From positions 224,549-288,548 of the forward strand of contig CAVTHT010000007.1 in the NCBI GenBank assembly GCA_963734575.1: DNA of 64,000 nucleotides. Direction: 5' to 3'. Of this stretch, positions 13,710-42,233 are shown one piece after another. The stretch is from an uncultured beta proteobacterium (GTDB taxonomy: Bacteria; Pseudomonadota; Gammaproteobacteria; Burkholderiales; Casimicrobiaceae). A model generated the notes under the pieces. The model made no database searches and was not told where the DNA came from. It saw nothing but the letters and a program-made list of their open reading frames with translations. The first letter of the stretch is position 1. The number at the start of each line of letters is the position of its first letter. The translations under genes were made by a program, and so were the position numbers.

Positions 13710-13897
13710 ATCAATGTTCCCTGCGGTGTTCGAGTCGTCCATACACTCTTTGAACCAATGCTAACTTAGCGAGGTTGCCGAGCCATTTCGAGCTGGTGTG
13801 CGCTCCCAAGCGGAAGTGCCTTAAGGCTCTGGCAGGTGACCACTCTTGAACCTCGGTTCAAGATGACGGACGGTACGGCACAGGTGGGGAACACCCT
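13710..13897 (+). ncRNA. ssrS: 6S RNA (SsrS) candidate
   Basis: A ~190-nt ORF-free region directly downstream of zapA, which is the conserved 6S locus. The 3' part CCACUCUUGAACCUCGGUUCAAGAUGACGGACGGUACGGCACAGG resembles E. coli 6S CACCUUGAACCAAGGGUUCAAGGGUUACAGCCUGCGGCGGC. The central GCCUUAAGG element is present. The 5' GUUCCC and 3' GGGGAAC ends can pair into a closing stem. Confidence 0.6.
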
Positions 13898-20254: not shown

Positions 20255-21094
20255 ATGACCGTCATCGCAATGTCGCAGGAAATGGGCACGCTGGGCCGGG
20301 ACGTCGCCTCCGGCGTGGCGCAGGCGCTGGGTCTCAAGCTCGTGCGCCACGAGATCGGCGACGCCGCGGCCGATCGGATGCGCGTGAAGAAGAGCCTGAT
20401 CAGGCGCTTCCGGGAAGGCCAGGTCGGCTGGTTCGAGAAGCGCCGCGTCGACGAAAGCAGCCTTGCGCTCTTCACGACCGAGCAGGTCTACGAGCACGCG
20501 CTCGAAGGCGACGTCCTGATCCGCGGCTGGGGCGCGACGGTGCTCCTCTACGGTGTGCGGCACGTGCCGTGCATTCGCGTCTGCGCGCCCATGGAGAACC
20601 GGGTGCGCTGGCTGATGGAGCGTCTCGACACTGACGACCCGCAGGTGGCGCGCGACGAGATCGACCGCTCCGATGCCGCCCACGCGGCCCGGATCCAGCA
20701 CGTCTTCGGCGTCACCCTCGGCGACCCGCTGCTGTACGACATGGTGCTGAACACGGGACGTGTCTCCATCGCGGGCTGCATCGAACAGGTGGTCGAGCTG
20801 GCGCGCCGACCCGAGTTCCAGCCGACGGCGGAAAGCGTCGCGGGCCTGCACAATCTCGCGCTGCAGGCGCGCATCCAGACCGCCTTGCGAGCGCACGATC
20901 CCGAAGCCCATATTGCCATCACGCCGGAGGTCGACGGCGGGCGCGTCATCCTGCGCGGTGTCGTCGTCAACGACGCCGAGCGCCAGGTGGCGCTGACGGT
21001 GGCGCGCGCGGTGCCCGGCGTGCAGAGTGTGGAGAGCGAGCTGCGCACGATGCGCACGACGCATCGCTATCGCGAGGCCGGCGGCGAAGACTGA
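20255..21094 (+). CDS. cytidylate-kinase-like (AAA/NTP-binding) family protein with C-terminal BON domain
   Basis: N-terminal P-loop-like MSQEMGTLGRDVASGVA..; C-terminal ..ITPEVDGGRVILRGVVVNDAERQVALTVARAVPGVQSVESEL is a BON domain. Confidence 0.6.
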   Translation: MTVIAMSQEMGTLGRDVASGVAQALGLKLVRHEIGDAAADRMRVKKSLIRRFREGQVGWFEKRRVDESSLALFTTEQVYEHALEGDVLIRGWGATVLLYGVRHVPCIRVCAPMENRVRWLMERLDTDDPQVARDEIDRSDAAHAARIQHVFGVTLGDPLLYDMVLNTGRVSIAGCIEQVVELARRPEFQPTAESVAGLHNLALQARIQTALRAHDPEAHIAITPEVDGGRVILRGVVVNDAERQVALTVARAVPGVQSVESELRTMRTTHRYREAGGED

Positions 21095-21134
21095 ACGCGC
21101 GCCGCGCGACGGCGGACGAGGGTGCATCGGCGAA

Positions 21135-21186
21135 CCATAATCGATTGCTTATCGTCATCATCGGAAGTTCTGATTAGTCGTTATGG
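21135..21186. promoter_or_regulatory. AT-rich element CCATAATCGATTGCTTATCGTCATCATCGG..CGTTATGG upstream of frc, sharing CTTATCRTYAT and ATCGAT with the lysR/tct palindrome
   Basis: The only AT-rich patch in the 570-bp frc leader. Motif similarity to 16364..16391 seen by eye. Confidence 0.3.
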
Positions 21187-21668
21187 TGCGCCGCGCAGTA
21201 CCCTTGGGATCGGGCTGCTCGCCACGGCGCCCGGGTGTTTCGATCAAACGAGCGTGGGATGCGATCCTCGTAATCCGGCCGATTCGCACGCACCATCCTC
21301 CCGCGACAGCCGATCCTGGTCGCTGCCCGCGCTGGTCCCGCGCATCGCCCTGTCGATTCAAAAAACCCGCATCACAACCTTCTGCCTTGCCGGCCAATCA
21401 CCGCTGGGGGGCACCGCAAGTGTTCGCGTCACCGACAAAAACTACGCACTGCACGGAAATCTGCGGCGGCGCTCAACATCCTCGCGGCCCTGCTCGCGTG
21501 GTTCGTGCTTCGCCCGATGCGGCGCGCACTGATCGAGAACAGCAAGACCGAGGCGCCCGCCGGCAGTGTCCCGCAGCCGGCATGACATGCAACACGGGCG
21601 ATCGGGCCCATGGAACGGAACGACGCGGCGGCCACGCCGCGTCGTGTGATCGCAAAAAAGGAGACGAG

Positions 21669-22946
21669 ATGAAAGCGTTGTCGGGTATCCGCATTCTAGA
21701 CATGACCCATGTGCAGGCCGGGCCCACGGCATCGCAACTCATGGCGTGGATGGGGGCGGACGTGATCAAGTTCGAGAACCCGGTCGGCGATGCCACGCGC
21801 GCGCAGCTGCGTGACGTGCCGAATGCAGACAGCCTCTATTTCACGATGCTCAACTGCAACAAGCGCTCGATCACCGTGAACATGAAGAATGCCGAAGGCA
21901 AGAAGGTCTTCGTCGAGCTCCTGAAGAAGTGCGACATCATCATGGAGAACTTCGGACCGGGCGTGCTCGACCGCTTCGGCTTCACCTGGGAAAAGATCCA
22001 CGAGATCAACCCGCGCATCATCATGGGCTCGATCAAGGGCTTCGGCTCGAACGGCCCGTACTCCGATTTCAAGGCGTACGAGAACGTCGCGCAGGCCATG
22101 GGCGGCGCAATGAGCACCACCGGCGTGCCGGAAGGCCCGCCGTTCGTGACCGGGGCGCAGATCGGCGACTCCGGCACGGGCCTGCATCTGGTCATCGGCC
22201 TCCTCGCGGCGCTGCAGCATCGGCACCAGTCGGGAGAAGGTCAGTACGTCGAAGTGGCCATGATGGACGCGGTGATGAACCTGTGCCGCGTCAAGTTCCG
22301 CGATCACCAGCGCCTGTTCCACGGCCCGCTCGCCGAGTATTCGGTGGGAACGCACCAGGGCATGGGCGCGGTGCCGCGCGCCGGCAACGATTCAGGCGGC
22401 GGCCAGCTCGGCAACGCCATCCGCTGCAAGCCGGGCGGCCCGAACGACTTCCTGTACATCGTCGTGCAGGAGGTCGTGTGGGCCGATCTGGCCAAGCGCA
22501 TCGGCCAGGAGCTCGGCCTGCCGGACCTCGTCAACGATCCGCGCTTCGCGACCATCGCCGAGCGGCGCAACCACCAGAACGACATGTGGGAGCTGATCGG
22601 CGAGCTCGCGCTCAAGTACACGAAGCGCGAGTTCATGGCGATCCTGAACGAGCTCGACGTGCCGTGCGGCCCGATCATGTCCACCGAGGACCTCTTCAGC
22701 GACGAGCACGTGCTCGGCCGGCAGATGATGGTCGAGCTCGATCATCCGCAGCGTGGCAAGTGGTACAACGTCGGCATGCCCATCAAGCTGTCGGCATCCC
22801 CCGCGGAGATCCGGCGCTCGCCCACGCTTGGCGAGCATACCGACGAGATCCTGCGCGAGGTGCTCGGCACGCCCCAGGCCGACATCGACCGCATGCGCGA
22901 CGCCGGCGCGTTCTCGAAGGACGCCCCGAAGAAGGTGGCGGCCTGA
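21669..22946 (+). CDS. frc: formyl-CoA:oxalate CoA-transferase
   Basis: MKALSGIRILDMTHVQAGPTASQLMAWMGADVIKFE..SLYFTMLNCNKRSI..aligns along its full length with Oxalobacter formigenes Frc. Intact. Confidence 0.9.
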   Translation: MKALSGIRILDMTHVQAGPTASQLMAWMGADVIKFENPVGDATRAQLRDVPNADSLYFTMLNCNKRSITVNMKNAEGKKVFVELLKKCDIIMENFGPGVLDRFGFTWEKIHEINPRIIMGSIKGFGSNGPYSDFKAYENVAQAMGGAMSTTGVPEGPPFVTGAQIGDSGTGLHLVIGLLAALQHRHQSGEGQYVEVAMMDAVMNLCRVKFRDHQRLFHGPLAEYSVGTHQGMGAVPRAGNDSGGGQLGNAIRCKPGGPNDFLYIVVQEVVWADLAKRIGQELGLPDLVNDPRFATIAERRNHQNDMWELIGELALKYTKREFMAILNELDVPCGPIMSTEDLFSDEHVLGRQMMVELDHPQRGKWYNVGMPIKLSASPAEIRRSPTLGEHTDEILREVLGTPQADIDRMRDAGAFSKDAPKKVAA

Positions 22947-22992
22947 CGCGCTGCACCAGCGCAGGCACCGGGTACGTGTCGATGGAGACGCA

Positions 22993-24708
22993 TTGAGCTC
23001 ACCGATTGCAACGCGACAAGGCGTGATCCCGATCGCCAGCACCGGCCGCCGGCAGGGGCCGAAGGTGCGCGCGACGGCGAAGGGACGCGTCGTCGACCCG
23101 GCGGCGGCGGAGGAAGTGCGTGCGCTGCTCGGGGATGTGCCGCGGCGCCGCGACCTCCTCATCGAGCACCTGCACCGCATCCAGGACGCCTACGGCTACC
23201 TGCCGGCGACGCACCTCGTGGCGCTCGCGGCCGAGATGCGCCTGCCCATGACCGAGGTGTACGAGGTCGCCACGTTCTATCATCACTTCGACGTGGTGAA
23301 GGAAGGCGAGCGCGCGCCGCCGAAGCACACCGTCCGGGTGTGCGAGTCGCTGTCGTGTGCAATGGCCGGCGCGCACGAGCTCCTCGATGCGCTGCCCGCG
23401 CAGCTCGGCGCCGACGTGCGCGTGGTGCCTGCACCCTGCGTGGGCCGCTGCCATGCGGCGCCCGTCGCGCTGGTCGGGTGGAACCCGGTCGACAACGCGA
23501 CCGTGGCCTCGGTGCGCGACGTCGTGGCGAGCGGTGCATTCCGTCCGGCCGTGGCGCCCTACATCGACTACCGGCAATACCGCGCGGAGGGTGGCTACCG
23601 CACGCTCGTGCAGTGTGTATCCGGACAGCGGCCGCTCGAGGACGTGCTCGCAACCATGGAAAGCTCGGCCCTGCGGGGCCTGGGCGGGGCGGGATTCCCG
23701 ACCGGGCGCAAGTGGCGCATCGTGCGTGCCGAGGCGGCACCGCGTCTACTCGCCGTCAACATCGACGAGGGCGAGCCCGGCACGTTCAAGGACCGTTTCT
23801 ATCTCGAGCGCGATCCCCACCGGTTCCTCGAGGGCATGCTGATCGCTGCGTGGGCGGTCGACATCGCCGAGATCTACATCTACCTGCGCGACGAGTACGC
23901 CGCGTGTCGCGAGCTCCTCACCCGCGAGCTCGAGGCGCTGGCCGCGGATCCGCCGTGTCCGCTGCCGGTCATTCACCTGCGGCGCGGCGCCGGAGCATAC
24001 ATCTGCGGTGAAGAGTCCGCGATGATCGAGTCGATCGAGGGCAAGCGGGGCATGCCGCGCCTGCGCCCGCCGTACGTCGCGCAGGTCGGGCTTTTCGGCC
24101 GGCCGACCCTCGAGCAGAACATGGAAACGCTCTTCTGGGTGCGCGACATCCTGGAAAAGGGCGCGCCGTGGTTCGCGGACCAGGGCCGCAATGGACGCAA
24201 GGGACTGCGCTCGTTCTCGGTGTCCGGTCGCGTGCGCAAGCCCGGCGTGCATCTCGCGCCGGCGGGCATCACCGTGCGACAGCTGATCGACGAATACTGC
24301 GGCGGCATGCTGCCGGGCCACGAGCTCTACGCGTACCTGCCGGGCGGCGCTTCGGGAGGCATCCTGCCGGCGAGCATGGCGGACATCCCGCTCGACTTCG
24401 ACACCCTGAACGCGCATGGCTGCTTCATCGGTTCGGCAGCGGTCATGGTGCTGTCGCAGCACGATCGCGCGCGCGATGCCGCGGTCAACGTAATGGAGTT
24501 CTTCGCCGAGGAATCGTGCGGCAAGTGCACGCCGTGTCGCGTGGGCACGGCGAAGGCCGTCGGCCTGCTGCAGGCGCCGCGCTGGGACCAGCCGCTGCTC
24601 GAGGAGCTTGCCCAGGCGATGGCGGATGCATCCATCTGCGGCCTCGGGCAGGCGGCGCCGAACCCGATCCGCTGCGTGATGAAGTACTTCCCGCACGAGA
24701 TCGCCTGA
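22993..24708 (+). CDS. fdsB: NAD-dependent formate dehydrogenase beta subunit with fused N-terminal NuoE-like gamma domain (FdsG-FdsB fusion, FDH1 Fdh1B-type); TTG start assumed
   Basis: NuoE-like 2Fe-2S part (..VRALLGDVPRRRDLLIEHLHRIQDAYGYL..TFYHHFDV..VCESLSCAMAG..) is continuous with the NuoF-like NAD/FMN/4Fe-4S part (..GLGGAGFPTGRKWRIV..ICGEESAMIESIEGKRG..ESCGKCTPCR..). SD GGAGA lies 5 nt upstream of TTG 22993. Confidence 0.8.
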   Translation: MSSPIATRQGVIPIASTGRRQGPKVRATAKGRVVDPAAAEEVRALLGDVPRRRDLLIEHLHRIQDAYGYLPATHLVALAAEMRLPMTEVYEVATFYHHFDVVKEGERAPPKHTVRVCESLSCAMAGAHELLDALPAQLGADVRVVPAPCVGRCHAAPVALVGWNPVDNATVASVRDVVASGAFRPAVAPYIDYRQYRAEGGYRTLVQCVSGQRPLEDVLATMESSALRGLGGAGFPTGRKWRIVRAEAAPRLLAVNIDEGEPGTFKDRFYLERDPHRFLEGMLIAAWAVDIAEIYIYLRDEYAACRELLTRELEALAADPPCPLPVIHLRRGAGAYICGEESAMIESIEGKRGMPRLRPPYVAQVGLFGRPTLEQNMETLFWVRDILEKGAPWFADQGRNGRKGLRSFSVSGRVRKPGVHLAPAGITVRQLIDEYCGGMLPGHELYAYLPGGASGGILPASMADIPLDFDTLNAHGCFIGSAAVMVLSQHDRARDAAVNVMEFFAEESCGKCTPCRVGTAKAVGLLQAPRWDQPLLEELAQAMADASICGLGQAAPNPIRCVMKYFPHEIA

Positions 24709-24735
24709 CGGCGGGCGCTGGCCAAGGATGGCGAA

Positions 24736-27548
24736 ATGAATCTGATGGTGGACATTGCGGCAGAGCAGGCGGCGGTACCGTTCACGCTGAACGGCAAGGC
24801 GGTCAGCGCGCAGCCGGGCGAGACGATCATCCAGGCTGCGGCGCGTCACGGCGTGGACATCCCGCATCTCTGCTACGCGGAGAACATGCGCCCGGACGGC
24901 AATTGCCGTGCGTGCGTGGTGGAGATCGAGGGCGAGCGCGTGCTCGCCCCGTCGTGCTGCCGCGCGCCGAGCGCAGGCATGGTGGTGTCGAGCGTCAGTG
25001 CGCGCGCCCTGCATTCGCAGCGGATGGTGCTGGAGCTGCTGCAATCGGACATGCCGCCGCGCGACTACAAGCTCGATTCCGAGCTGCAGCACTACGTGCG
25101 CGAGCTCGAGGTCGGCAAGCCGCGGTTCGAGCCGCGCATGTCGCCGGGGGCGGATCTCTCGCATCCGGCGATTGCGGTGAACCTCGATGCGTGCATCCAG
25201 TGCACGCGCTGCGTGCGCGCCTGCCGCGAGGTGCAGGTCAACGACGTCATCGGCTACGCGTTCCGCGGCAACCGTTCGCTGCCGGTGTTCGATCTCGACG
25301 ACCCCATGGGTGCTTCGACGTGCGTCGCGTGCGGCGAGTGCGTGCAGGCGTGTCCCACCGGCGCGCTGATGCCGGCGCGCGATGCTGGATCTCGTCGAGG
25401 CCGACAGGACGGTGGATTCCGTGTGCCCGTACTGCGGTGTCGGTTGCCAGCTGACCTATCACGTGAAGGACAACCGCATCGTGCGCGTGGAGGGCCGCGA
25501 CGGCCCGGCCAATCACGGCCGGTTGTGCGTGAAGGGCCGCTACGGCTTCGACTACGTGCATCACAAGCAACGGCTCACGAAGCCCCTGATCCGCCGCGAA
25601 GGCGCGCCGAAGTCCGCCGACTTCACGATGGATCCGGAAGACGTGATGCGCGTGTTCCGCGAGGCGACGTGGGAGGAGGCCCTGGAGCTCGCGGGCGGGA
25701 AGCTGCGCCGGGTGCGCGACGAGCACGGTCCGGGCGCACTCGCCGGCTTCGGCTCCGCCAAGGGCAGCAACGAGGAGGCGTATCTCTTCCAGAAGCTCGT
25801 GCGGACCGGGTTTCGCAGCAACAACGTCGATCACTGCACGCGACTGTGTCACGCGTCGAGCGTTGCGGCGCTCATGGAGGGCATCGGATCCGGTGCCGTG
25901 TCCAATCCGGTCATGGACGTGCTCAAGGCCGACGTCGTGCTCCTGATCGGCGCCAATCCGATCGTGAACCATCCGGTCGCCGCGACGTGGATCAAGAACG
26001 CCACGAAGCAGGGCACGAAGCTCGTGCTCGCCGACCCGCGCCGTTCGGAACTGGCGCGCCACGCGGCGTACTACCTGCAGTTCAAGCCCGACACCGACGT
26101 CGCGCTGCTCAACGCGATGATGCACACGATCGTCACGGAAGGGCTCGTGGACGAAGCCTTCGTCGCCGATCGCACCAACGGCTACGACGAGCTGCGCCGC
26201 AACGTCGAAGGCTACAGCGCCGAGGCGATGGCGCCGATCTGCGGCATTCCCGCCGGCGACGATCCGGGAAGTGGCGCGTCTCTTCGCGACGTCGCGCGCC
26301 TCGATGATCCTGTGGGGAATGGGCATCTCGCAGCACGTGCACGGTACCGACAATGCACGCTGCCTGATCGCGCTGTCGATGATCACCGGCCAGATCGGCC
26401 GGCCCGGCACGGGCCTGCACCCGCTGCGCGGCCAGAACAACGTGCAGGGCGCGTCCGACTCGGGACTGATCCCGATGGTGTTCCCCGACTACCAGCGCGT
26501 CGACAATCCCGAAGCGCGCGCCCGGTTCGAGAAGCTTTGGAACACGCCGCTCGACCCGCGGCCCGGCCTCACCGTCGTCGAGATCATGGATGCCGTGCAT
26601 GCCGGCGCCATCCGCGGGATGTACATCATGGGCGAGAACCCCGCGATGTCCGACCCCGACGTGAACCACGCGCGCGGCGCGCTCGCGAAGCTCGAGCACC
26701 TCGTGGTGCAGGACATCTTCCTCACGGAGACCTGCTACCTCGCCGACGTGATCCTGCCCGCCACGGCATTCCCGGAGAAGACGGGCACCTTCACCAATAC
26801 CGACCGCCTGGTGCAGCTCGGCCGCAAGGCGCTCGACGCTCCCGGCGAGGCCAAGCCGGACCTGTGGATCATCCAGGAGATTGCGCGGCGCCTCGGGCTC
26901 GACTGGAACTACACCGAGCCGTCGCAGGTGTTCAACGAGATGCGCAAGGCCATGCCTTCGATCGCCGGCATCACGTGGGCGCGTCTCGAAAGCGAATCCG
27001 CGGTGACCTATCCGTGCGTGAACGAAGGCGATCCCGGGGACCCGGTCGTGTTCACCGAGGATTTCCCGACGCCGACGCATCGCGCGCGCCTCGTGCCCGC
27101 CGACCTCATTCCGGCCAACGAGCGGCCCGACGCCGATTACCCGATGGTGCTGATCACCGGGCGTCAGCTGGAGCACTGGCACACGGGCAGCATGACGCGC
27201 CGCGCTTCGGTGCTGGACGCCATCGAGCCCGAGCCGGTGGCGTCGCTCAACTCCGGCGACATCACGCGCCTCGGCCTGCGTCCGGGCGATGTCGTCACCG
27301 TGGAATCGCGTCGCGGCCGCATCGCGCTCTACGCGCGCGCCGACGAGGGCACGCCGCCGGGTGCCGTATTCATTCCGTTCTGCTATTACGAGGCAGCGGC
27401 GAACAAGCTCACCAATCCCGCGCTCGATCCGTTCGGCAAGATTCCGGAGTTCAAGTACTGCGCCGTGCGCGTGCGTGCGGGCGGCGACGTCGCGGAGCAC
27501 TTGAGCTTCGGCGGCGGGCAGGTATTGCCGGAAGAGCAGACGGCGTGA
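24736..27548 (+). CDS. fdsA: formate dehydrogenase catalytic (alpha) subunit, molybdopterin/tungstopterin, NAD-linked type; two single-base frameshifts near 25385 and 26255
   Basis: N-terminal 2Fe-2S/4Fe-4S ferredoxin-like region (CYAENMRPDGNCRACVVEIEGERVLAPSC.., CIQCTRCVRACREVQ.., CVACGECVQACPTGAL). It continues in a second frame (..VDSVCPYCGVGCQLTYHVKDNRIVRVEGRDGPANHGRLCVKGR..) and a third (..REVARLFATSRASMILWGMGISQHVHGTDNARCLIAL..KYCAVRVRA). The three pieces are colinear with Cupriavidus FdsA. Confidence 0.85.
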
Positions 27549-27661
27549 GCGCGCCGGCGGGATTCGCAGGGGCGGCTGCCGCCCCGCACGACTGACGCGG
27601 GGCGACAGGCCCCGCCCACGGGTCCGCGGCCACGCCGCGGGCCGCACCAGGAGACAGGCCA

Positions 27662-29824
27662 ATGGCGGACGACAAGATGCATTCAGGGGGAACGATGACG
27701 CAGAACAAGACGGCAGTCCGGCAGATTCTCGACAAGGTCAAGGCGGACGGACGCACCTCGCTCACCGCGCCCGAAGGCAAGCTCGTCTGCGACGCCTACG
27801 GCATTCCCGTGCCGCGCGAAGGCGTGGCGACGTCGCGGCAGGAGGCGGCGCAGCTCGCGGCCGGCATGGGCTTCCCGGTGGTGCTCAAGATCGTGTCGCC
27901 GGAGATCCTGCACAAGACGGAAGCCGGCGGCGTGCTGGTCGGCGTCAAGTCCGCGCAGGAAGCGGAGCAGGGCTTCGACACCATCATGGCCAACGCGAAG
28001 AAGTACGACGCGAAGGCGAACCTCCTCGGCGTCCAGGTGCAGCAGATGCTGAAGGGCGGTCAGGAAGTGATCGTCGGCGCCGTCACCGACCCGTCGTTCG
28101 GCAAGCTCGTCGCGTTCGGCCTCGGCGGCGTGCTCGTCGAGGTGCTGAAGGACATCACGTTCCGTCTCGCGCCGGCGACGCGCGAGGACGCGCTGTCGAT
28201 GCTCGACGGCGTGCAGGCGGCGGAGATCCTCAAGGGCGTGCGGGGCGGCGACGCGGTGAACCGCGACGCGCTCGCGTCGCTCATCGAGAGCGTGTCGCGC
28301 CTCGTCTCCGACTTCCCCGAGATCGCCGAGATGGACCTCAACCCCGTGTTCGCCACCAAGGAGGGCGCCACGGCGGCGGACGTGCGCATCGTGGTGGACT
28401 GGAATCCCGCGCCCGCGCGGTTCCGGCCGAAGCACGAGGACATCGTGCGCGACATGAACCGCATCATGAAGCCCGATGCGGTGGCGGTGATCGGCGCGTC
28501 CAACGAGGCCGGCAAGATCGGCAACTCGGTGATGAAGAACCTGATCAACGGCGGCTACCAGGGCGAGATCTATCCCATCCATCCGTCCGCGGACGAGATC
28601 ATGGGGCGCAAGGCGTACAAGAGCGTCAAGGACGTGCCCGGCAAGATCGACGTCGCGGTGTTCGCGATCCCGGCCAAGTTCGTGGCGCAGGCCCTCACCG
28701 AGGTCGGCGAGAAGAAGATCCCCGGCGCGGTGCTCATCCCGTCGGGCTTCGCGGAAACCGGCAACGTCGAGGGGCAGAAGGAGATCCAGGAGATCGGGCG
28801 CAAGTACGGCGTGCGCTTGATGGGACCGAACATCTACGGCTTCTACTACACGTGGAAGAATCTCTGCGCGACGTTCTGCACGGCGTACGACGTCAAGGGC
28901 CACGCGGCGCTGTCGTCGCAGTCGGGCGGCATCGGCATGGCGATCATCGGCTTCTCGCGCTCGGCCAAGATGGGCGTGTCGGCGATCGTCGGACTCGGCA
29001 ACAAGTCCGACATCGACGAGGACGATCTCCTCACCTTCTTCGAGCAGGACGACAACACGCACATCATCGCGCAGCACTGCGAGGACCTGAAGGACGGGCG
29101 CGCCTTCGCGGAAGTTGCGAAGCGCGTGTCGAAAAAGAAGCCGGTCGTGGTGCTGAAGGCGGGCCGCACCAGCATGGGGGCGCGCGCCGCGAGCTCGCAC
29201 ACCGGTGCGCTCGCCGGCAACGACAAGATCTACGAGGACGTGCTCAAGCAGTCCGGCGTGATCCGCGCGCGCAGCTTGCGCGACCTGCTGGAATTCGCGC
29301 GGGCGATTCCCGTGCTGCCGACGCCGAAGGGCGAGAACGTGGTGATCATCACCGGCGCCGGCGGCTCCGGCGTGCTGCTGTCGGATGCCTGCGTCGACAA
29401 CAACCTGCAGCTCATGACGATGCCGCCGGATCTCGACACGGCGTTCAAGAAGTTCATCCCGCCGTTCGGGGCTTCCGGCAACCCGGTGGACATCACCGGC
29501 GGCGAGCCGCCGAAGACGTATCAGAACACGATCCGGCTCGGTCTCGAGGACCCGCGCATCCACGCGCTGATCCTCGGTTACTGGCACACGATCATCACCC
29601 CGCCGATGGTGTTCGCGAAACTCGTCGCCGAAGTCGTCGAGGAGTTCCGAGCCAAGGGCATCTCGAAGCCGATCGTCGCCTCGCTCGCGGGCGACGTCGA
29701 GGTCGAGGAAGCCGCGGAGTATCTGTTCGATCACGGCGTTCCGGCGTACCCCTACTCGACCGAGATGCCCGTCGCCGTGCTCGGCGCGAAGTACAAATGG
29801 GCGCGTGGCGCGGGAATAATCTGA
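27662..29824 (+). CDS. ADP(NDP)-forming acyl-CoA synthetase, fused ATP-grasp + CoA-binding/ligase-CoA domains (acetate--CoA ligase family)
   Basis: 720-aa intact ORF. N-terminal ATP-grasp (..LTAPEGKLVCDAYGIPVPREG..), CoA-binding (..AVIGASNEAGKIGNSVMKNL..) and succinyl-CoA-synthetase-like CoA-ligase domain (..VGLGNKSDIDEDD..HTGALAG..). Confidence 0.8.
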   Translation: MADDKMHSGGTMTQNKTAVRQILDKVKADGRTSLTAPEGKLVCDAYGIPVPREGVATSRQEAAQLAAGMGFPVVLKIVSPEILHKTEAGGVLVGVKSAQEAEQGFDTIMANAKKYDAKANLLGVQVQQMLKGGQEVIVGAVTDPSFGKLVAFGLGGVLVEVLKDITFRLAPATREDALSMLDGVQAAEILKGVRGGDAVNRDALASLIESVSRLVSDFPEIAEMDLNPVFATKEGATAADVRIVVDWNPAPARFRPKHEDIVRDMNRIMKPDAVAVIGASNEAGKIGNSVMKNLINGGYQGEIYPIHPSADEIMGRKAYKSVKDVPGKIDVAVFAIPAKFVAQALTEVGEKKIPGAVLIPSGFAETGNVEGQKEIQEIGRKYGVRLMGPNIYGFYYTWKNLCATFCTAYDVKGHAALSSQSGGIGMAIIGFSRSAKMGVSAIVGLGNKSDIDEDDLLTFFEQDDNTHIIAQHCEDLKDGRAFAEVAKRVSKKKPVVVLKAGRTSMGARAASSHTGALAGNDKIYEDVLKQSGVIRARSLRDLLEFARAIPVLPTPKGENVVIITGAGGSGVLLSDACVDNNLQLMTMPPDLDTAFKKFIPPFGASGNPVDITGGEPPKTYQNTIRLGLEDPRIHALILGYWHTIITPPMVFAKLVAEVVEEFRAKGISKPIVASLAGDVEVEEAAEYLFDHGVPAYPYSTEMPVAVLGAKYKWARGAGII

Positions 29825-29832
29825 CGCGACAC

Positions 29833-29866
29833 GAGATGTGGCCGATCAGAGTCGCGGCCACATCTC
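29833..29866 (+). terminator. 12-bp perfect hairpin (GAGATGTGGCCG-loop-CGGCCACATCTC) between the acyl-CoA synthetase gene and oxc
   Basis: Perfect inverted repeat with a 10-nt loop. No U-tract, so it may be a processing or stability element rather than a terminator. Confidence 0.3.
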
Positions 29867-29930
29867 GAACGACTACAGGAGCCACCATGGACACTGACCA
29901 GCGACGCGCAAGGAACCGGCCCCGGCCGGA

Positions 29931-31690
29931 ATGCAGGCGACCCAGGACATGACGAGCGGCGGCCAAGCCAATGCCAGCGCCGAAGCGCAGGAAACCACCG
30001 GCTTCAATCTCGTCATCGAGGCCCTGAAGCTCAACGGCATCGACACGATCTTCGGCCTCCCCGGCATTCCGATCACGGACCTCACGCGCAAGGCACAGGC
30101 CGCCGGCCTGCGCGTGATCTCGTTCCGGCACGAGCAGAACGCCGGCTATGCCGCGTCGATCGCGGGCTTCCTGACGCAGAAGCCGGGCATCTGCCTGACC
30201 GTGTCGGCGCCGGGGTTCCTCAATGGCCTGACGGCCCTCGCCAATGCCACCACCAACTGCTTTCCGATGATCCTCATCAGCGGCTCCAGCGAGCGCGAGG
30301 TCGTCGACCTGCAGCAGGGCGACTACGAGGAAATGGACCAACTCGCGATCGCCAAGCCGTTGTGCAAGGCCGCGTTCCGCGTGCTGCACGCCGAGGACAT
30401 CGGCGTCGGAATCGCGCGTGCCATCCGCGCCGCGGTGTCCGGGCGTCCGGGCGGCGTCTACCTCGATCTTCCGGCCAAGCTGTTCCCGCAGGGCGTGGAT
30501 GCGGAAGCCGGCAAGCAGTCGCTCATCAAAGTGGTCGATCCGGCACCGCGCCAGATCCCCGCGCAGGATGCCGTGCAGCGTGCGGTCGACCTGCTGAAGA
30601 GCGCCAAGCGGCCGCTCATCATTCTCGGCAAGGGCGCCGCCTACGCCCAGGCCGACGACGACATTCGTGCGCTGGTCGAGAAGACCGGCATCCCGTACCT
30701 GCCCATGTCGATGGCGAAGGGCCTGCTGCCCGACAACCACGAGCAATCCGCTGCGGCCGCGCGCTCGTACGTGCTGCCCGAGGCCGACGTGGTGATGCTG
30801 ATCGGTGCGCGCCTCAACTGGCTGCTCTCGCACGGCAAGGGCAAGACATGGGGCGGCAGAGAGCACCAAGGCGTGGGGCGGTCAGAAATTCGTGCAGATC
30901 GACATCTCGCCGCAGGAGGCCGACAGCAACGTTCGCATCGATGCGCCCGTGGTCGGCGACATCGGTTCGTGCGTCGCCGCGCTGCTCGGCACGATCGGAA
31001 ACCAGTGGCCCAAGCCGCCGTCGGACTGGCTCGACGCGATCGCCGAGCGCAAGACCAAGAACGTCGCGCAAGATGGCCGAGACGCTCGCCAGGAATCCGT
31101 CGCCGATGAATTTCCACAGCGCGCTCAACGTGGTGCGCGACATCGTCAAGGCGAATCCCGATGCCATGCTGGTCAACGAAGGCGCCAATGCGCTCGACTT
31201 CACCCGCAGCATCGTCGACATGTACAAGCCGCGGCGGCGCGTCGACGTCGGCACCTGGGGCGTGATGGGCATCGGGATGGGCTTCTCCGTGGCGGCAGCG
31301 GTGGTCACGGGCCAGCCGGTGATCGCGATCGAAGGGGACAGCGCGTTCGGCTTCTCCGGGATGGAGTGCGAGACCATCTGCCGCTACAACCTGCCGGTGT
31401 GCGTCGTCATCATGAACAACAACGGCGTCTACCGCGGGGACGAGGTCAATCCTACGGGCGGCTCCGACCCTTCACCGCTGGTGTTCGTCAAGGACGCGCG
31501 TTACGAGAAGCTGATGGAGGCCTTCGGCGGCGTCGGCGTGCATGCGACGACGCCGGCTGAATTGCGCAAGGCGATGGAAGAAGCCGTCCGCTTGCGCAGG
31601 CCGACGCTCATCAATGCGGTGATCGACGAGGCCGCCGGCACCGAAAGCGGTCGCATCACGAGCCTCAATCCGACCGCGAAGAAGAAATGA
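29931..31690 (+). CDS. oxc: oxalyl-CoA decarboxylase (ThDP-dependent); two single-base frameshifts near 30860 and 31075
   Basis: ..[72 protein letters not shown].. then ..[22 protein letters not shown].. then ..[64 protein letters not shown]. Colinear with O. formigenes Oxc across three frames. Confidence 0.9.
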
Positions 31691-31793
31691 GCCGAAGGCG
31701 TTGCACACCTGCGGTGCAGTCGTAAGCTCCCCCTCCTGGTAGACAGCGATGACTGGACTTTTCTGGCAGGATTTTGCCTGGAGGGAGGGTCCA

Positions 31794-32060
31794 ATGAAGA
31801 AGTCCCGATTCACGGAGTCGCAGATCGTCGCGATTCTCAAAGAGGGAGAAGCCGGCGTCGCCGTCGCCCAGCTCACCCGGAAGCACGGGATCAGTGCCGC
31901 TACGTACTACCACTGGAAATCGAAATACGGTGGAGCTGCCGTGTCGGAGCTAAAGCGCCTGCGCGAACTCGAGGCCGAGAACGCGAAGCTCAAGCGCATG
32001 TATGCCGACCTGGCGCTCGAGAACACTGCGATCAAGGACGTGCTCAGCCGAAAAATCTGA
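31794..32060 (+). CDS. IS3-family transposase OrfA (HTH)
   Basis: MKKSRFTESQIVAILKEGEAGVAVAQLTRKHGISAATYYHWKSKYGG..leucine zipper. Confidence 0.8.
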   Translation: MKKSRFTESQIVAILKEGEAGVAVAQLTRKHGISAATYYHWKSKYGGAAVSELKRLRELEAENAKLKRMYADLALENTAIKDVLSRKI

Positions 32061-32896
32061 CGCCGTCAGCCAAGCGCGAAGTGATCCGGATCATGACCGC
32101 GGAACACGATCTGCCGATCGTTCGCGCTTGCCAGATTGCCCGGCTATCGCGGGCGGCGTACTACAAGCCGGGCGTCGACCGAATGGCGCGCGATGCCGAG
32201 GTGATCGTGGCCTTGCAGGCGATCGTCGTCGAAGAGCAGCGCTGGGGCTTCTGGAAGTGCCATGACCGGCTGCGTGCGCAAGGCTACGGCTGGAACCACA
32301 AGCGCGTGTGGCGGGTGTACTGCCAGCTTCGGCTTAACCTGCCGCGCCGCACCAAGCGACGTGTTCCCCAACGCGAACGGCAACCGCTGATCGTCGAGCC
32401 GCGTATGAATGCAGTCTGGGCGCTCGATTTCATGCGCGACACGCTCTACAGCGGTCGGGTGTTCCGAACCCTCAACGTCATCGACGAAGCCAACCGTGGT
32501 GCGCTGGGCATCGACATCGCCGTGAGCATCCCCGCGGCGCGCGTCATCACGTTTCTGGCGCAAATGATCGATCTGCACGGCCGCCCGGCAGCCATTCGCT
32601 GTGATAACGGCCCGGAGCTCACCAGCCAGACCTTCACCGACTGGTGCAAGGAGCAGGACATCGAGCTGCGCTTCATCCAGCCCGGCAAGCCAGACCAGAA
32701 CGCCTACATCGAACGATTCAACCGGACGTATCGCGAGGAGGTCCTGAGCGCCTACCTGTTCGACTCACTCGACGAGGTGCGTGAGATCACAGCGGACTGG
32801 ATCGAGCGCTACAACGAGATCCGTCCACACGACGCGCTGGGCAGCCTGCCGCCAGCGCGCTACCGCGAGCGTTTGCTCGGCGGAACTCCAGTTTAG
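32057..32896 (+). CDS. IS3-family transposase OrfB (DDE integrase core), expressed by -1 frameshift from OrfA
   Basis: ..WALDFMRDTLYSGRVFRTLNVIDEANRGALGI..IRCDNGPELTS..QPGKPDQNAYIERFNRTYREE.. is the rve domain. The -1 frame is continuous from ..NLTPSAKREVIRIMTAEHDL. Confidence 0.85.
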   Translation: MTPSAKREVIRIMTAEHDLPIVRACQIARLSRAAYYKPGVDRMARDAEVIVALQAIVVEEQRWGFWKCHDRLRAQGYGWNHKRVWRVYCQLRLNLPRRTKRRVPQRERQPLIVEPRMNAVWALDFMRDTLYSGRVFRTLNVIDEANRGALGIDIAVSIPAARVITFLAQMIDLHGRPAAIRCDNGPELTSQTFTDWCKEQDIELRFIQPGKPDQNAYIERFNRTYREEVLSAYLFDSLDEVREITADWIERYNEIRPHDALGSLPPARYRERLLGGTPV

Positions 32897-33746
32897 AACT
32901 GTCTACTTGACGGGGGAGCTTCAACCCATTTCATTCTGGTCTTTCCTTTGCGTCAGTGCGTCGCCCGGGTCGCAAGACGATGATGTACCTAATGGCCACA
33001 CTCACCATCGAGATTGGAACTGTTTACGCATTACCATCCGCGCCGGGCGAGGACGGGGTTGTTAGTCAACTCAGGATTGTTAAATGCCTTGCCGAGCGCA
33101 TGCACGTTGTTTTTTTCCAGTTCAGTCCACGCGTGGATCCGTTCCTCGGGCAGGTAGCGCCGGCCACGAAGCCCTTCCATCCGAGCGTCCCCAAACCGTT
33201 TTGAAACCAGCACGAATTGGATATAGATCTGTGGGGTAGTATGCCTGTCACGATTCAACATTACCGCCCGCGCTTCGTGAACGTGATTGATTTGGGTCAA
33301 TGAGGTTGATAATCCGCATGGACCTTGCGTGCATCCGTCGCGACAGTAGCACTCGTATCCGGATTTCCGACGGCACCCACCTTAAGAGTGTCCGGCGGCG
33401 GCTTTTCGATGCGGGGCTCGGCGCTAGCTGCGCTGCAAATTGGGAGGCGCCGGTCCCAACCACGTGGTCGAATCGTATTCAGTATCCGAATGAAACGAAA
33501 TCTGCGCTGAGTGTGTTGTCGTCAAGGCAGCGTGCAGGCGGTAACGACATGCGGCGTGCTTGACCGGGGCGTCAGCGAGGTATTAATGTTGGCGGCAAGA
33601 ACGCTTAGCGTGATGAGACTCAAGACACCATGCCAGGCGCGACAATCAACCGCGTTTGTCAAGCCAATCATATCGCTGACGAAACAGGAAAGTAGTCCCG
33701 AAACGTGGATGACGTTTGGCACGTCCGATTCTCACTGGAGCAAAGA

Positions 33747-34286
33747 ATGCGATTAGCCCTTATCACCGCGTTGTTGGTGATCGGAACCTGCACCGGCGCT
33801 GGCTCGGCGAGCGCGCAAACCGGGCAGCTCTTTAGTTGCATTCAAGGACCCGTTGGCGTGCCTACCATCGTAATTGCGCCGCCATCGCCTGATACCAATC
33901 AAGCGATATCAATCACAGTTTCGGCAGGCGACCACAGCTCGTCCCCGAATCAGGTTGTGGGCACTTCAGTCGCGGCGACGGTGAATGGCCAATCCATCGA
34001 CGTCACGATGAACGGGGCACTATTCAGTCCTGCGCCGCCTCACCTCACCGGCATGTGCGGACTGGTCACGCTGACAGCGTTGCCCGCTGGAACGTACACG
34101 ATCAACTTCTTGTTGGCCCTTCACCTCCCGGACCCGCCGGTTCTTGCAGCTTCCAGTACGCTGGTGGTATCGAACCAAGGAACATCCAGCCCACCGAACC
34201 CCATCCCCTCGTCCAATCCAATTTCGATTGCTGTTCTCGTTGGTATTCTCCTGCTCGTTGCTAGAAGTAGCCTGCGCACGCGGTGA
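33747..34286 (+). CDS. secreted hypothetical protein with C-terminal sorting-signal-like tail, encoded in a low-GC insert
   Basis: Signal peptide MRLALITALLVIGTCTGAGSASA/QTG. Ser/Thr/Pro-rich body. C-terminus ..NPIPSSNPISIAVLVGILLLVARSSLRTR is a motif, hydrophobic helix and basic cluster, reminiscent of PEP-CTERM / IPTL-CTERM sorting domains. Gene GC is ~55% versus ~70% in the host. Confidence 0.45.
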   Translation: MRLALITALLVIGTCTGAGSASAQTGQLFSCIQGPVGVPTIVIAPPSPDTNQAISITVSAGDHSSSPNQVVGTSVAATVNGQSIDVTMNGALFSPAPPHLTGMCGLVTLTALPAGTYTINFLLALHLPDPPVLAASSTLVVSNQGTSSPPNPIPSSNPISIAVLVGILLLVARSSLRTR

Positions 34287-34296
34287 GCATGATGCA

Positions 34297-34574
34297 GAGA
34301 GCGCGCCCGCCATCTGGCGCCGCCAAGACCTGCCGGGGAGCGTCGTCATCATGAACAACAACGGCGTCTACCGCGGCGACGAGGTCAATCCTACGGGCGG
34401 CTCCGACCCTTCACCGCTGGTGTTCGTCAAGGACGCGCGTTACGAGAAGCTGATGGAGGCCTTCGGCGGCGTCGGCGTGCATGCGACGACGCCGGCTGAC
34501 TTGCGCAAGGCGATGGAAGAAGCCATCCGCTCGCGCAGGCCGACGCTCATCAATGCGGTGATCGATGAGGCGGC
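34297..34574 (+). pseudogene. 3' fragment of a second, diverged oxalyl-CoA decarboxylase copy (oxc'), truncated upstream by the low-GC insert and interrupted downstream by an IS21-family element
   Basis: ~96% nucleotide identity to oxc 31395..31650 (..[78 protein letters not shown]). It ends exactly at the IS21 left terminus TGTCAGTGGG. Confidence 0.7.
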
Positions 34575-34649
34575 TGTCAGTGGGAATCCAATAATCCCCA
34601 GCTGTAGGAATTGAATTTTCCTCACCCATCCTCGATCAGGAGATCGCAG

Positions 34650-35966
34650 ATGGAAGGGACGCAAGAAGTGGCAGTGGAGGTCGCCGGTATCGTCGCCGTG
34701 CCCGAGGTGGGCGCGGAGATGCCGGTGATCAGCAAAGAACGGTGGGAGCAATTGCGGCGACTGCACGCGCTGGGGCAGTCGATCTCGCAGATCGCCCGCA
34801 CGGCGGGTTTGGACCGCAAGACGGTGCGCGCTGGCCTGCGTAAGCTCGAATGGGTGCCATACCAGCGGGCGCCGGTGGCTGAGACGCTGCTTTCGATCCA
34901 CCACGGGTGGCTAGTCGAGCGTGCTCCGCAGGTGAATTACTCGGCGCGGATTCTGTTCCAGGAACTGCGCGCGACGCGCGGCTACCAGGGCGGCTATGAC
35001 ACCGTGCGCAATGCCGTGCGCCCGCTGCGCCGGGAAGCCGCGGCGGCGTCGCTCACCCAGTGTCGGTTCGAGACGGAGCCGGGCGAGCAAGGCCAGGTGG
35101 ATTGGGGCCAGGTGCGTGTGCAATTCGCCAACGGTCCGGCGACGGTGCATGTGTTCGTGCTGACGCTTGGCTACTCGCGTCGAGCGTGGGCGGAGGGCTA
35201 CGAGAACGAGCGCATGGGTTCACTTCTGGCAGCGCACGAACACGCCTTCTCGCATTTCGGTGGTCGTCCCGCGGAGCTGCTCTACGACCGGATGCGCACC
35301 GTGACCATGAAGCCCGCCGCGGAGAAGGCGAAGTGGAATCCGACCTTCGAGAGCTTCTTCCGCCACTGGGGCTTCGAGCCGAGCGCTGTGCCGGCCGTAC
35401 CGGGCCCAGACCAAGGGCAAGGTCGAGTCGGGCGTGAAGTATGTCAAGCGCAACTTCATCCCGGCCGGGTGTTCGTCGATCTCGCCGACTTCAACGACCA
35501 ACTGGCGACCTGGCTCGGCGAGGTCGCCGACGTGCGCGTGCACGGCACCACGCATGAGCGGCCGATCGACCGCTTTGCGCGCGAAGCCGGCGCCCTGGTG
35601 CGCACCATCGACCAGCCAGCGTTCTTCCGGCGCTACAGCGGGAGCGGTGGTGGCCGACGACTGGCTGGTCAGCCATCGACGCCAACCGCTACTCGGTACC
35701 GTGGCGGCTCATTGGCAAGACGGTCGAGCGTGGTGCGGGTGGGCTCGAGCTGGCAGATCTCCCACGGCGGCGCGGTCGGTGGCCGAGCATCCGGTGCTCA
35801 CCGGTCGCGCATCAGGTGCTGGTCGATCCTGCCCACGGCCCCGGTGCAGTGGCGCGCAACGCTCGCACCCGCTTCAGTGCACCGCTCACCGGTTCATGCG
35901 GCCAACGACGTGCAGCGCAGTCGAAGTGCGCGACCTCGACGTCTATGAACAGCTGCTGGAGGTCGC

Positions 35967-35970
<4 letters not shown>
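34650..35970 (+). CDS. IS21 transposase IstA, at least 3-4 frameshifts
   Basis: HTH ..ISQIARTAGLDRKTVRAGL.. and DDE region ..GEQGQVDWGQVRVQFANGPATVHVFVLTLGYSRRAWAEGYENERMGSLLAAHEHAF.., then ..KGKVESGVKYVKRNFIP.., ..VHGTTHERPIDRF.. and ..VEVRDLDVYEQLLEVA are spread over three frames. Confidence 0.75.
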
Positions 35971-36749
<779 letters not shown>

Positions 36750-36808: not shown

Positions 36809-36867
36809 CGGCCGGCACCGAAAGCGGTCGCATCACGAGCCTCAATCCGAGCGCGAAGAAGAAGTAG
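36809..36867 (+). pseudogene. last ~19 codons of oxc' (..[18 protein letters not shown]) displaced by the IS21 insertion
   Basis: CGGCCGGCACCGAAAGCGGTCGCATCACGAGCCTCAATCCGAGCGCGAAGAAGAAGTAG matches the oxc 3' end with 3 substitutions. It continues the fragment that stops at 34574. Confidence 0.7.
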
Positions 36868-38098: not shown

Positions 38099-38351
38099 GA
38101 CATCGCTTCCCTGTTTACATCGCGCCAGCGATTGTACCGAGCGCTCGGCGGCCTCCCGGCAACGGCTCTGCGACTTCGCGCCGCGGTTGCAGCGCGCCCC
38201 GCTTGACAGCGGTCAACGCGTATGTTGCAGTGCAGCATCAGAATTCAGCAAGGCGTGAGCCAACGGGCGTGCGACCGACCGGGCACCGGTCTTGCGACGC
38301 ACAAAACACGGCGGGGGCCGCGACCGCCCGCGACCGACGAGGGAGCCGCAC

Positions 38352-39330: not shown

Positions 39331-39431
39331 CGCACATCGGCCGGCGTGATCGATCTCGCAGCCGCACGGACCGCACCGGGAAACGGCGCGCGCCGCAGCG
39401 CTGCCGGTGCGCCGCACGAGACGACAGCGCG

Positions 39432-40931: not shown

Positions 40932-41126
40932 GAAGGACCGGGACGGGCGCGCAAGCACGACGGTCGGGCATTATTTCACAGGGGTGCGGAACGCCCGGTG
41001 CCCGGCAAAGCGCGGCCGCCGCGTGGCTTGCGCTCCGACGGCGCATGCCACTAAGGTGTCGGCACAACAAGAGGCAGGACGCATGCCATTCTCGCGCCGC
41101 ATGCCGGCGCCACTTTCGGAGGAAAC

Positions 41127-42150: not shown

Positions 42151-42233
42151 CCGGTGCGGGTGAGTCGCCCGGGCTGACCAGCGCCGAGCCCACGCCTCAT
42201 GCCGGCGGCCTGCTCGGCGCCGGCGACCGCGCG

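Follow-up and report, generated by a model that had tools for sequence, protein, structure and literature searches.

An ADP-forming acyl-CoA synthetase gene linked to frc in bacterial oxalate clusters is a candidate for thioester supply to the Frc/Oxc cycle

Oxalotrophy is usually described by two marker enzymes, Frc and Oxc. In a 64,000-nucleotide stretch of DNA from an uncultured betaproteobacterium of the family Casimicrobiaceae (contig CAVTHT010000007.1, positions 224,549 to 288,548; in the following, the window), the genes of these two enzymes lie in one co-directional block together with genes of a putative NAD-linked formate dehydrogenase (FDH) and a gene for a member of the NDP(ADP)-forming acyl-CoA synthetase family (in the following, ACD). 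The comparison of related loci revealed that the ACD gene is associated with frc far beyond chance. Taking sequence features and analogy to known systems together, we somewhat favour the interpretation that the ACD is an ADP-forming oxalate-CoA ligase or formate-CoA ligase, which would replenish the thioester pool of the Frc/Oxc cycle.

The block comprises five genes, all of them on the plus strand: frc (21669-22946, TIGR03253 equivalog), the gene of the FDH beta subunit with fused NuoE-like and NuoF-like parts (fdsGB, ~22993-24708, assigned by Pfam and 7e5z_B), fdsA for the FDH1-type alpha subunit (24736-27548, in three frames, TIGR01591), the ACD gene (27662-29824, encoding 720 aa, assigned by Pfam), and oxc (29931-31690 or from 29887, in three frames, NF006721). 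A preliminary description of this DNA had given the gene content, order, strand, and coordinates correctly, as judged by profile, Pfam, and PDB matches. The block constitutes a gene cluster for oxalate catabolism in an aerobic betaproteobacterium, and its nearest relatives are metagenome-assembled genomes (MAGs) of the Casimicrobiaceae.

A species scan with one genome per GTDB species yielded at least 578 genomes with a relative of the ACD. The best 80 of these at least 578 relatives are 81-93% identical. At species-representative loci (designated L with a number), the genes neighbouring the ACD gene were mapped by tblastn. A locus was treated as fully flanked if its sequence extended for at least 8 kb to either side of the ACD gene (54 loci), whereas at least 1.4 kb of upstream sequence was required for the upstream test (70 loci) and at least 3.5 kb for typing of the arrangement (65 loci). 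An frc gene is located within 10 kb of the ACD gene in all 54 fully flanked loci, and in 58 of 70 loci it lies directly upstream of the ACD gene on the same strand. Among the fully flanked loci, 34 of 54 encode an Oxc with at least 60% identity, 20 carry FDH1-type genes, 25 a panE-like reductase gene within 10 kb of the ACD gene, 47 a GntR/FCD regulator, and 28 a transporter of the major facilitator superfamily (MFS). The commonest arrangement is oxc-frc-ACD (30/65 loci), followed by 2-hydroxyacyl-CoA lyase-like (HACL-like)-frc-ACD (18/65) and by frc, oxc, and gntR divergent from the ACD gene (8/65). Four of the 65 loci show frc-ACD with the upstream gene unresolved, one shows frc-ACD-oxc, and two were classified as other. 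The arrangement of the window, frc-fdsGB-fdsA-ACD-oxc, occurs in 2/65 loci (L004 and L043). The preliminary description had proposed to look for a co-occurrence of the ligase with oxc and frc in other genomes, and the frc linkage as well as the frequent oxc-frc-ACD order bear this out. Its emphasis on the FDH genes between frc and oxc does not carry over to the clusters in general, as the order with FDH between frc and ACD and oxc in the last position is lineage-specific and was found only in L004, L043, and the metagenome locus L001 among the loci examined.

The best 80 relatives include Betaproteobacteria (Casimicrobiaceae, Burkholderiales, Caballeronia), Alphaproteobacteria (Bradyrhizobium, Inquilinus, Stellaceae, Rhodomicrobium, and others), Gammaproteobacteria (Steroidobacteraceae), Acidobacteriota, and Rokubacteria. 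Replicons of a plasmid collection add Cupriavidus metallidurans CH34, Azospirillum, Paracoccus, and Methylobacterium nodulans, as well as the actinobacteria Streptomyces and Nonomuraea, whose ACDs show 65-71% identity. In C. metallidurans CH34, the ACD gene occupies 958937-961063 of the chromid NC_007974.2, and in M. nodulans it is MNOD_RS38320. On a Streptomyces plasmid, the frc-ACD pair is located beside a transporter of the OFA family (oxalate/formate antiporter). In L084, where the ACD is 69% identical, the trio is retained and the ACD start overlaps the frc stop. A homolog with 52% identity and the alpha-beta domain order showed no frc/oxc context at its locus. Between Proteobacteria, Acidobacteriota, and Rokubacteria (L027, L033, L037, L038, L044, L046, L048), the ACD is 83-86% identical; the Acidobacteriota loci encode an Frc with 86-87% and an Oxc with 71-79% identity, and at L038, the Rokubacteria locus, frc and oxc are represented only by distant relatives. 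The likeness of the ACDs across phyla suggests a horizontal spread of the whole module, an extreme constraint on the sequence, or both.

In 18 of the 54 fully flanked loci, a HACL-like protein is the sole thiamine pyrophosphate (TPP) enzyme. It is a 560-aa TPP enzyme encoded upstream of frc-ACD (L061:6801-8489 and 17 other loci, for example L042, L045, L047, L066, L068, and L080; also L084 and L087), with a match of 268 bits to the 2-hydroxyacyl-CoA lyase 7pt3 vs. 183 bits to the Oxc 2q27. Hosts of the HACL-like variant are Caballeronia, Steroidobacteraceae, Inquilinus, Propylenella, and Streptomyces. All three annotated HACL-like loci (L061, L084, L087) carry divergent sucC/sucD-like genes, and L087 also carries an aldehyde dehydrogenase gene. 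Both TPP partners, Oxc and the HACL-like enzyme, presumably release formyl-CoA. Because the HACL-like enzyme replaces Oxc in these loci, the common denominator of the clusters may be formyl-CoA rather than oxalate.

The ACD protein itself contains all five superfamily subdomains in the beta-alpha domain order. Pfam matches cover ATP-grasp_5 (PF13549, residues 26-245), CoA_binding (270-361; PF02629/PF13380 270-394), Succ_CoA_lig (PF13607, 412-548), and Ligase_CoA_2 (PF19045, 560-719). The PDB matches comprise 8wzu (E = 4e-142), 4xyl, and 9y43 at an identity of ~35-45%. The histidines H513 (in SSHTGALAG) and H84 (in ILHKTEAGGV) align with the motifs MSHTGALMG and IIHKSDAGGV of 8wzu, a solved ADP-forming 4-hydroxybutyrate-CoA ligase, and are invariant within the ACD subfamily. 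In line with structural work on ACD1, we take H513 to be the phosphohistidine of the alpha-domain loop, H84 to be the second histidine, in the ATP-grasp domain, and both to be catalytic residues. By sequence, the ACD clearly belongs to the superfamily of NDP-forming acyl-CoA synthetases, for which a release of ADP and Pi instead of AMP and PPi is predicted.

Within this superfamily of ~39,000 cluster representatives, the ACD orthologs are, judged by their identities and motif residues, a discrete and strongly constrained subfamily. Identities range from 65 to 94% and then drop to ~52%. Among the representatives of clusters built at 50% identity, one matches with 1095 bits (69%) and the next full-length one with 765 bits (52%); the third full-length representative, P0124 (614 bits, 55%), is a frameshift-garbled prediction, and the remainder lies at ~40%. 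P0124 was left out of the subfamily alignment on account of its frameshift-garbled stretches. In the superfamily motifs, the subfamily has I391 for C, C402 for N, G423 for A, G444 for S, H472 for Y, G565 for N, and H634 for D. The ACD scores below every specific NCBIfam cut-off (NF045493 576/1300, NF045494 500/1200, NF045492 456/1300, TIGR02717 470/567), and the best-scoring family models are those of acetate-, 3-hydroxypropionate-, and 4-hydroxybutyrate-CoA ligases. Public proteins with 88-94% identity are abundant in metagenomes of Burkholderiales and Casimicrobiaceae, and an exact look-up of the window ACD in public assemblies gave no match. Annotated members carry the RefSeq name “acetate--CoA ligase family protein”. 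Between the window and L002, the ACD shows the highest identity of the region (88%), followed by Oxc (83-86% per segment), FdsGB (75%), MatB (73%), Sua5 (66%), and Frc (55%, a different subtype).

In the CoA-recycling cycle, Frc converts oxalate and formyl-CoA to oxalyl-CoA and formate, and Oxc decarboxylates oxalyl-CoA to formyl-CoA and CO2; the tungsten/molybdenum FDH1-type enzyme would use NAD+ to oxidise the formate to CO2. Each turn of the Frc/Oxc cycle conserves exactly one thioester. The ACD would serve as an anaplerotic enzyme of this cycle and spend one ATP per new CoA thioester, either by a direct route (oxalate + CoA + ATP to oxalyl-CoA + ADP + Pi) or by a formate route, in which formyl-CoA would be formed from formate, CoA, and ATP and handed to oxalate by Frc. 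It might thereby offset thioesters that are lost to formyl-CoA hydrolysis as well as oxalyl-CoA that is drawn off for assimilation, and it could restart the cycle in the absence of formyl-CoA. Assimilation would drain thioesters because oxalyl-CoA reductase releases free CoA. A candidate for such a reductase, as predicted from its family match, is encoded by a panE/ApbA-like gene on the plus strand (38343-39449, NF005089 473.5 bits), 6.6 kb downstream of oxc. It contains one frameshift near 38937 and shares 45-54% identity with an ApbA gene that L002 carries within its oxalate cluster. A glycerate kinase gene is also present in the window, and together with panE it was counted among the nearby assimilation genes.

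Several known systems provide precedents for such a thioester supply. In Escherichia coli, YfdE “primes” the Frc/Oxc cycle with acetyl-CoA as the donor, and the half-life of formyl-CoA is 1.9 h (PMC3720670). E. coli Nissle equipped with OxlT, Oxc, and Frc degraded oxalate only once an oxalyl-CoA synthetase was added (PMC8899768), and Methylobacterium extorquens possesses an AMP-forming oxalyl-CoA synthetase (OXS) with a Km of 9 uM (PMC7154664). Because of YfdE priming, the synthetase requirement in Nissle, and the M. extorquens enzyme, an input of thioesters appears to be needed. No YfdE-like or AAE3-like gene was seen in the window. The preliminary description had raised the idea that the ACD could prime the cycle, and from the frc linkage, the catalytic histidines, and the precedent of YfdE, OXS, and AAE3, this seems the best-supported reading. 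Substrate, direction, and physiological role are deduced from the sequence context. An ADP-forming ligase is sufficient to drive oxalate activation, and the alternative of a formate-CoA ligase would suit clusters with Oxc and clusters with the HACL-like enzyme to the same degree.

The likenesses and differences to these systems can be specified further. The Frc and Oxc of the window are orthologous by curated models to those of the Oxalobacter formigenes frc/oxc and the E. coli yfdXWUVE systems, from which the window block differs by the NAD-linked FDH in its midst. The YfdE of E. coli follows the same logic of an accessory enzyme supplying the first or a lost oxalyl-CoA (PMC3720670). However, YfdE is a class III CoA-transferase, whereas the ACD is an ATP-grasp NDP-forming ligase, so that the thioester would be paid for by ATP and not by acetyl-CoA. 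M. extorquens shares with the window the same two-subunit FDH1 type, and a panE-like reductase gene is also located nearby in the window; ATP-dependent oxalate activation exists in this organism (PMC7154664). Yet its OXS belongs to the AMP-forming adenylate family and consumes two ATP equivalents, in contrast to one for the ACD, which belongs to the unrelated NDP-forming superfamily. The plant and yeast enzyme AAE3 (EC 6.2.1.8) has the same proposed net reaction from oxalate to oxalyl-CoA and the same role upstream of Oxc, and in engineered E. coli it was needed alongside Frc and Oxc (PMC8899768), but it is an AMP-forming adenylate-forming enzyme that is not homologous to the ACD. The ACD1 of Candidatus Korarchaeum (4xyl) and the 4-hydroxybutyrate- and 3-hydroxypropionate-CoA ligases of Nitrosopumilus (8wzu and 9y43) have the five subdomains and both histidines in common with the window ACD, and 9y43 also shows the same beta-alpha fusion order; the window ACD differs from them by its identity of only ~35-45%, its substituted motifs, and its oxalate/formyl-CoA gene context. 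Succinyl-CoA synthetase shares the superfamily and the phosphohistidine chemistry of the ACD. Its listed side substrates include oxalate (PMC8085960), but unlike the ACD it is a two-subunit enzyme of the tricarboxylic acid cycle, promiscuous on oxalate and unclustered with frc/oxc.

Four points weigh against an assignment of the ACD to oxalate or formate activation. The TPP partner is HACL-like and not Oxc in 18/54 loci (18/65 when typed by arrangement), the closest characterised enzymes use acetate, 3-hydroxypropionate, and 4-hydroxybutyrate but no dicarboxylates, fdsA and oxc are untranslatable as written in the window, and the literature searched holds no biochemical or expression data for the ACD subfamily. 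In Bradyrhizobium diazoefficiens, blr3159, a “conserved hypothetical” gene, is co-regulated with gcl-hyi-glxR in a nasT mutant (PMC6759348). It sits by bll3156 and bll3157, where the ACD gene would be expected, and may correspond to it.

It might also be that the ACD activates another acid such as acetate, succinate, glycolate, or glyoxylate, either as an indirect supply of CoA donors or within a different pathway of formyl-CoA chemistry, which we consider rather unlikely. Such a substrate would agree with the top-scoring family models and with the RefSeq name, SucCD-like genes adjoin the HACL-like variant clusters, and the donor for YfdE is acetyl-CoA (PMC3720670). However, the scores to the specific NCBIfam models lie far under the cut-offs (576 vs. 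1300 and 500 vs. 1200), the subfamily is separated by a gap from 69% to ~52-40% identity with different residues at conserved motif positions, and the frc linkage is universal in our sample, while a supply of acetyl-CoA or succinyl-CoA should not need a dedicated clustered ligase.

The preliminary description had further raised the possibility that the ACD harvests ATP from formyl-CoA or oxalyl-CoA in a substrate-level phosphorylation on oxalate. A net gain of ATP from oxalate via the ACD is ruled out by thioester stoichiometry and by the listed free energy: decarboxylation makes no new thioester, and net ATP is zero because each formyl-CoA either activates the next oxalate or yields one ATP, while ATP formation from oxalyl-CoA + ADP + Pi is endergonic, listed at +11 +/- 7 kJ/mol (PMC8085960). 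ATP could be gained only if the thioester arises oxidatively, because the thioester count of oxalate is conserved. An ATP-forming ACD, which would convert formyl-CoA (or oxalyl-CoA) + ADP + Pi to the acid, CoA, and ATP, would have to draw on another source of thioesters. For example, glyoxylate + CoA + NAD(P)+ might be converted to oxalyl-CoA by a panE-like or acylating dehydrogenase, followed by Oxc and the ACD, or a 2-hydroxyacyl-CoA might be cleaved by the HACL-like enzyme. This direction is favoured by the reversibility of ACD-family enzymes and by their use for ATP synthesis in archaea. The constant TPP partners, as presumed formyl-CoA-releasing enzymes, and the panE-like and aldehyde dehydrogenase genes found in clusters would fit as well, and Bradyrhizobium has been proposed to channel arabinose-derived glyoxylate into the Frc/Oxc pathway (PMC5996035). 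Against it stand the conserved thioester count on oxalate and the endergonic step from oxalyl-CoA; moreover, the invariant neighbour Frc is not needed by such a route, and the presence of MFS transporters of the oxalate/formate type in the clusters suggests that the substrate is external oxalate. Overall, we regard an ATP-forming role as improbable. A combination of the ACD, a TPP enzyme, and an acylating dehydrogenase as an undescribed route of substrate-level phosphorylation via formyl-CoA to formate and ATP, which would oxidise glyoxylate, glycolate, or 2-hydroxyacids via oxalyl-CoA or 2-hydroxyacyl-CoA, has to be seen as a long shot.

The reading frames of two partner genes are broken in the window. 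By tblastn with the intact L001 FdsA, fdsA extends over three segments (24736 to ~25389, ~25391-26253, and ~26254-27548, in frames 1, 2, and 3), and by tblastn with the Oxc proteins of L001 and L002, oxc extends to ~30859, over ~30860-31068, and over ~31069-31690 (frames 3, 1, and 2). Compared to the syntenic L001 (82.7% DNA identity), the breaks are isolated one-base insertions at ~25391 and ~26254 in fdsA and at ~30860 and ~31069 in oxc, none of which lies in a long homopolymer. Should oxc begin with the ATG at 29887, a fifth indel is probably present near 29897. The preliminary description had identified all five genes correctly but missed two +1 insertions each in fdsA and oxc. Frame switches were surveyed over the window by a Viterbi path on codon usage together with a stop-codon test, as a simple frame plot of third-position GC content was too noisy. 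Over 64 kb, the reading frame was found to change on the same strand with no intervening stop codon at least 15 times, roughly once per 4 kb. They are located at ~6743, 12286, 25391, 26254, 30860, and 31069 in the first half and at ~37863, 38936, 41514, 43837, 46997, 47325, 58726, 62393-62669, and 63561, and also at 45400-46640, in the second half of the window. The genes split by frame breaks include miaB, a quinone oxidoreductase gene, the panE-like gene, the TRAP genes dctP and dctM, a DUF3530 gene, the glycerate kinase gene, ilvD, and accB.

These breaks could be taken as signs of a decaying locus, in which the frameshifts of fdsA and oxc are real, IS3 and IS21 elements broke the cluster, and the ACD alone is functional. 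The four, probably five, breaks within fdsA and oxc, the IS3 and IS21 elements with a truncated second oxc 3' end directly downstream, and the position of the insertions outside long homopolymers would be in line with decay. However, similar breaks occur window-wide in genes that cannot all be dead, such as miaB, ilvD, and accB, and the relatives from long-read MAGs are fragmented in the same way (frc of L001 with ~15 one-base insertions; L004 and L005 broken), whereas the short-read relative L043 gives single unfragmented matches for all five genes. In addition, the broken fdsA and oxc retain 82-89% amino acid identity to intact orthologs on either side of each break. Because of the window-wide breaks, the fragmented long-read relatives, and the unfragmented L043, the breaks of fdsA and oxc are most likely sequence errors with the pattern of an indel-prone long-read assembly. 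A pseudogenisation specific to this locus was judged unlikely, and we give little credence to a decaying cluster. The preliminary description had also stressed that the ACD is intact. Its 720 aa are indeed uninterrupted, but the intactness carries no signal because there is ~1 break per 4 kb and the ACD gene spans 2.1 kb, with frameshifts scattered over the whole window.

The assignment of the partner genes rests on family models and structural matches. The frc gene reaches 567.5 bits with TIGR03253 oxalate_frc (cut-off 504.2) and 582.7 bits with NF003809, its product has the class III CoA-transferase fold (CoA_transf_3, PF02515, residues 4-391), and its ATG is preceded at 5 nt by the Shine-Dalgarno sequence GGAGA. 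It represents a less common subtype, with 54.7% identity to the frc of L002 and ~55% to that of most related clusters. The FDH beta subunit comprises 2Fe-2S_thioredx (NuoE-like) and Complex1_51K, SLBB, and NADH_4Fe-4S (NuoF-like) domains and matches 7e5z_B, the beta subunit of the tungsten FDH1 of M. extorquens, with 755.7 bits (residues 14-566 vs. 13-561). Its start is uncertain, whereby the TTG at 22993 fits the M. extorquens protein. For fdsA, the TIGR01591 model was found in two frames (2-264 and 270-672) and the HoxU/NuoG-like Fe-S N-terminus in the third. The intact FdsA of L001 matches 7vw6_A with 1304 bits vs. 599 bits to 6tg9_A, the FdsA of Rhodobacter capsulatus. Read by eye, the fdsA translation places a Cys of the stretch ...HCTRLCHASS... 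where the Sec/Cys ligand lies. These matches uphold the earlier assignment to a two-subunit FDH1-type dehydrogenase with the gamma part fused to beta. By homology, we assign the FDH to the tungsten FDH1 type of M. extorquens, with metal and NAD+ reduction as predictions. As also previously described, neither fdsC nor fdsD follows fdsA; the 113 bases up to the ACD gene encode nothing. The N, M, and C domains of TPP enzymes were all found in Oxc across the frame-broken pieces, with NF006721 covering 6-293 (547 bits) and 361-569 (349.7 bits) and the middle piece in a third frame. The oxc gene can be regarded as complete only on the assumption that its one-base insertions are errors, and it starts either at ATG 29931 or at ATG 29887 with another indel near 29897. 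ATG 29887 is preceded by the Shine-Dalgarno sequence AGGAG and followed by the peptide EPAPAGMQ, which is common to L043.

The intergenic gaps in the order frc/fdsGB/fdsA/ACD/oxc amount to ~46, 27, 113, and 62-106 nt, and a consensus scan detected no intrinsic terminator in any gap of the five-gene block. Internal terminators, which according to the preliminary description would have broken the operon structure, are accordingly absent from these gaps as far as the consensus goes, and a co-transcription of frc-fdsGB-fdsA-ACD-oxc appears plausible from the sequence. The ACD-oxc spacer contains a perfect 13-bp GC-rich hairpin on the plus strand (29832-29867) with no U-tract behind it. The fold of 29815-29940 has -45.2 kcal/mol (z = -3.0), and the hairpin was not called as a terminator. 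It is absent from the related loci compared and could be an RNA-stability element or a REP-like repeat. In the 571-nt non-coding stretch 5' of frc (21092-21668), no sigma-70-like promoter match, no Rfam match, and no conserved counterpart in related loci were found, and Rfam gave nothing in or around the oxalate cluster. The GntR/FCD regulator that is present in 47/54 related clusters is missing from the 64-kb window.

Directly behind oxc, an IS3-family element (orfA and orfB, 31749-32896, plus strand; NF033516 transpos_IS3, 47 and 219 bits) marks the end of the cluster. It is followed by ~1.4 kb of low-GC (59%) DNA, as compared to a G+C content of ~68% for the whole window, and by a 193-aa open reading frame (33705-34286), which matches no family and whose N-terminus appears hydrophobic on visual inspection. 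A second oxc 3' end (34310-34574, plus strand) is 94.7% identical to 31374-31635, shows 80-84% amino acid identity to the Oxc of L001 and L002, and is cut by an IS21 istA/istB element (34611-36749; IstB NF038214). The sequence of L004 just past oxc resumes at window 36811-36867 with 98% identity. The window lacks the ABC-transporter genes that are located behind oxc in L001. The loci L002 and L003 encode an Xsc sulfoacetaldehyde acetyltransferase (951 bits, above the cut-off) and a GMC oxidoreductase behind the ACD (L002:12454-15930), and L001 a TauE-family exporter before frc (L001:3177-3929); none of these three was found in the window.

A malonate-type module is located 8 kb downstream of oxc (39450-45397). 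It consists of a gene for a MatB-type malonyl-CoA synthetase on the minus strand (39450-40934), TRAP transporter genes (41178-44042), and a gene for a fused malonate-decarboxylase beta/gamma-like carboxyltransferase (44129-45397). The AMP-forming ligase of this module had been considered as an OXS/AAE3-type enzyme and was rejected, as it matches 4fuq with 595 bits vs. 242 bits to AAE3. MatB-like genes occur within 10 kb of the ACD gene in many betaproteobacterial loci. Elsewhere in the window, Rfam matches identified a cobalamin riboswitch (7455-7679), a 6S RNA (13715-13894), and an S-adenosylhomocysteine (SAH) riboswitch (52451-52526), which are unrelated to the oxalate cluster; the coding segment 52589-54010 behind the SAH riboswitch is presumably ahcY.

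Frc, Oxc, FDH1, and the PanE-type reductase pathway are already known, as is the ACD enzyme superfamily. In the literature searched, neither the ACD subfamily nor an ADP-forming ligase for oxalate or formate in oxalotrophy is described, and two recent reviews mention no ATP-dependent activation step. At least 578 species-level genomes from several phyla carry the ACD gene, which is extremely well conserved. Its product, which is nearly always encoded adjacent to the known enzymes, would fill a stoichiometric gap, providing net oxalyl-CoA for assimilation and a restart of the cycle in aerobic oxalotrophs. If this is true, an ADP-forming oxalate-CoA or formate-CoA ligase would constitute a new enzyme activity, which would need one ATP per activation in comparison to two for the known AMP-forming enzymes. 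Such an enzyme would be of relevance for oxalate-degrading therapeutics, where an added synthetase proved essential (PMC8899768), and for synthetic one-carbon pathways based on formyl-CoA. Furthermore, as a genomic marker of assimilatory oxalotrophy the ACD gene could be superior to frc and oxc on their own.

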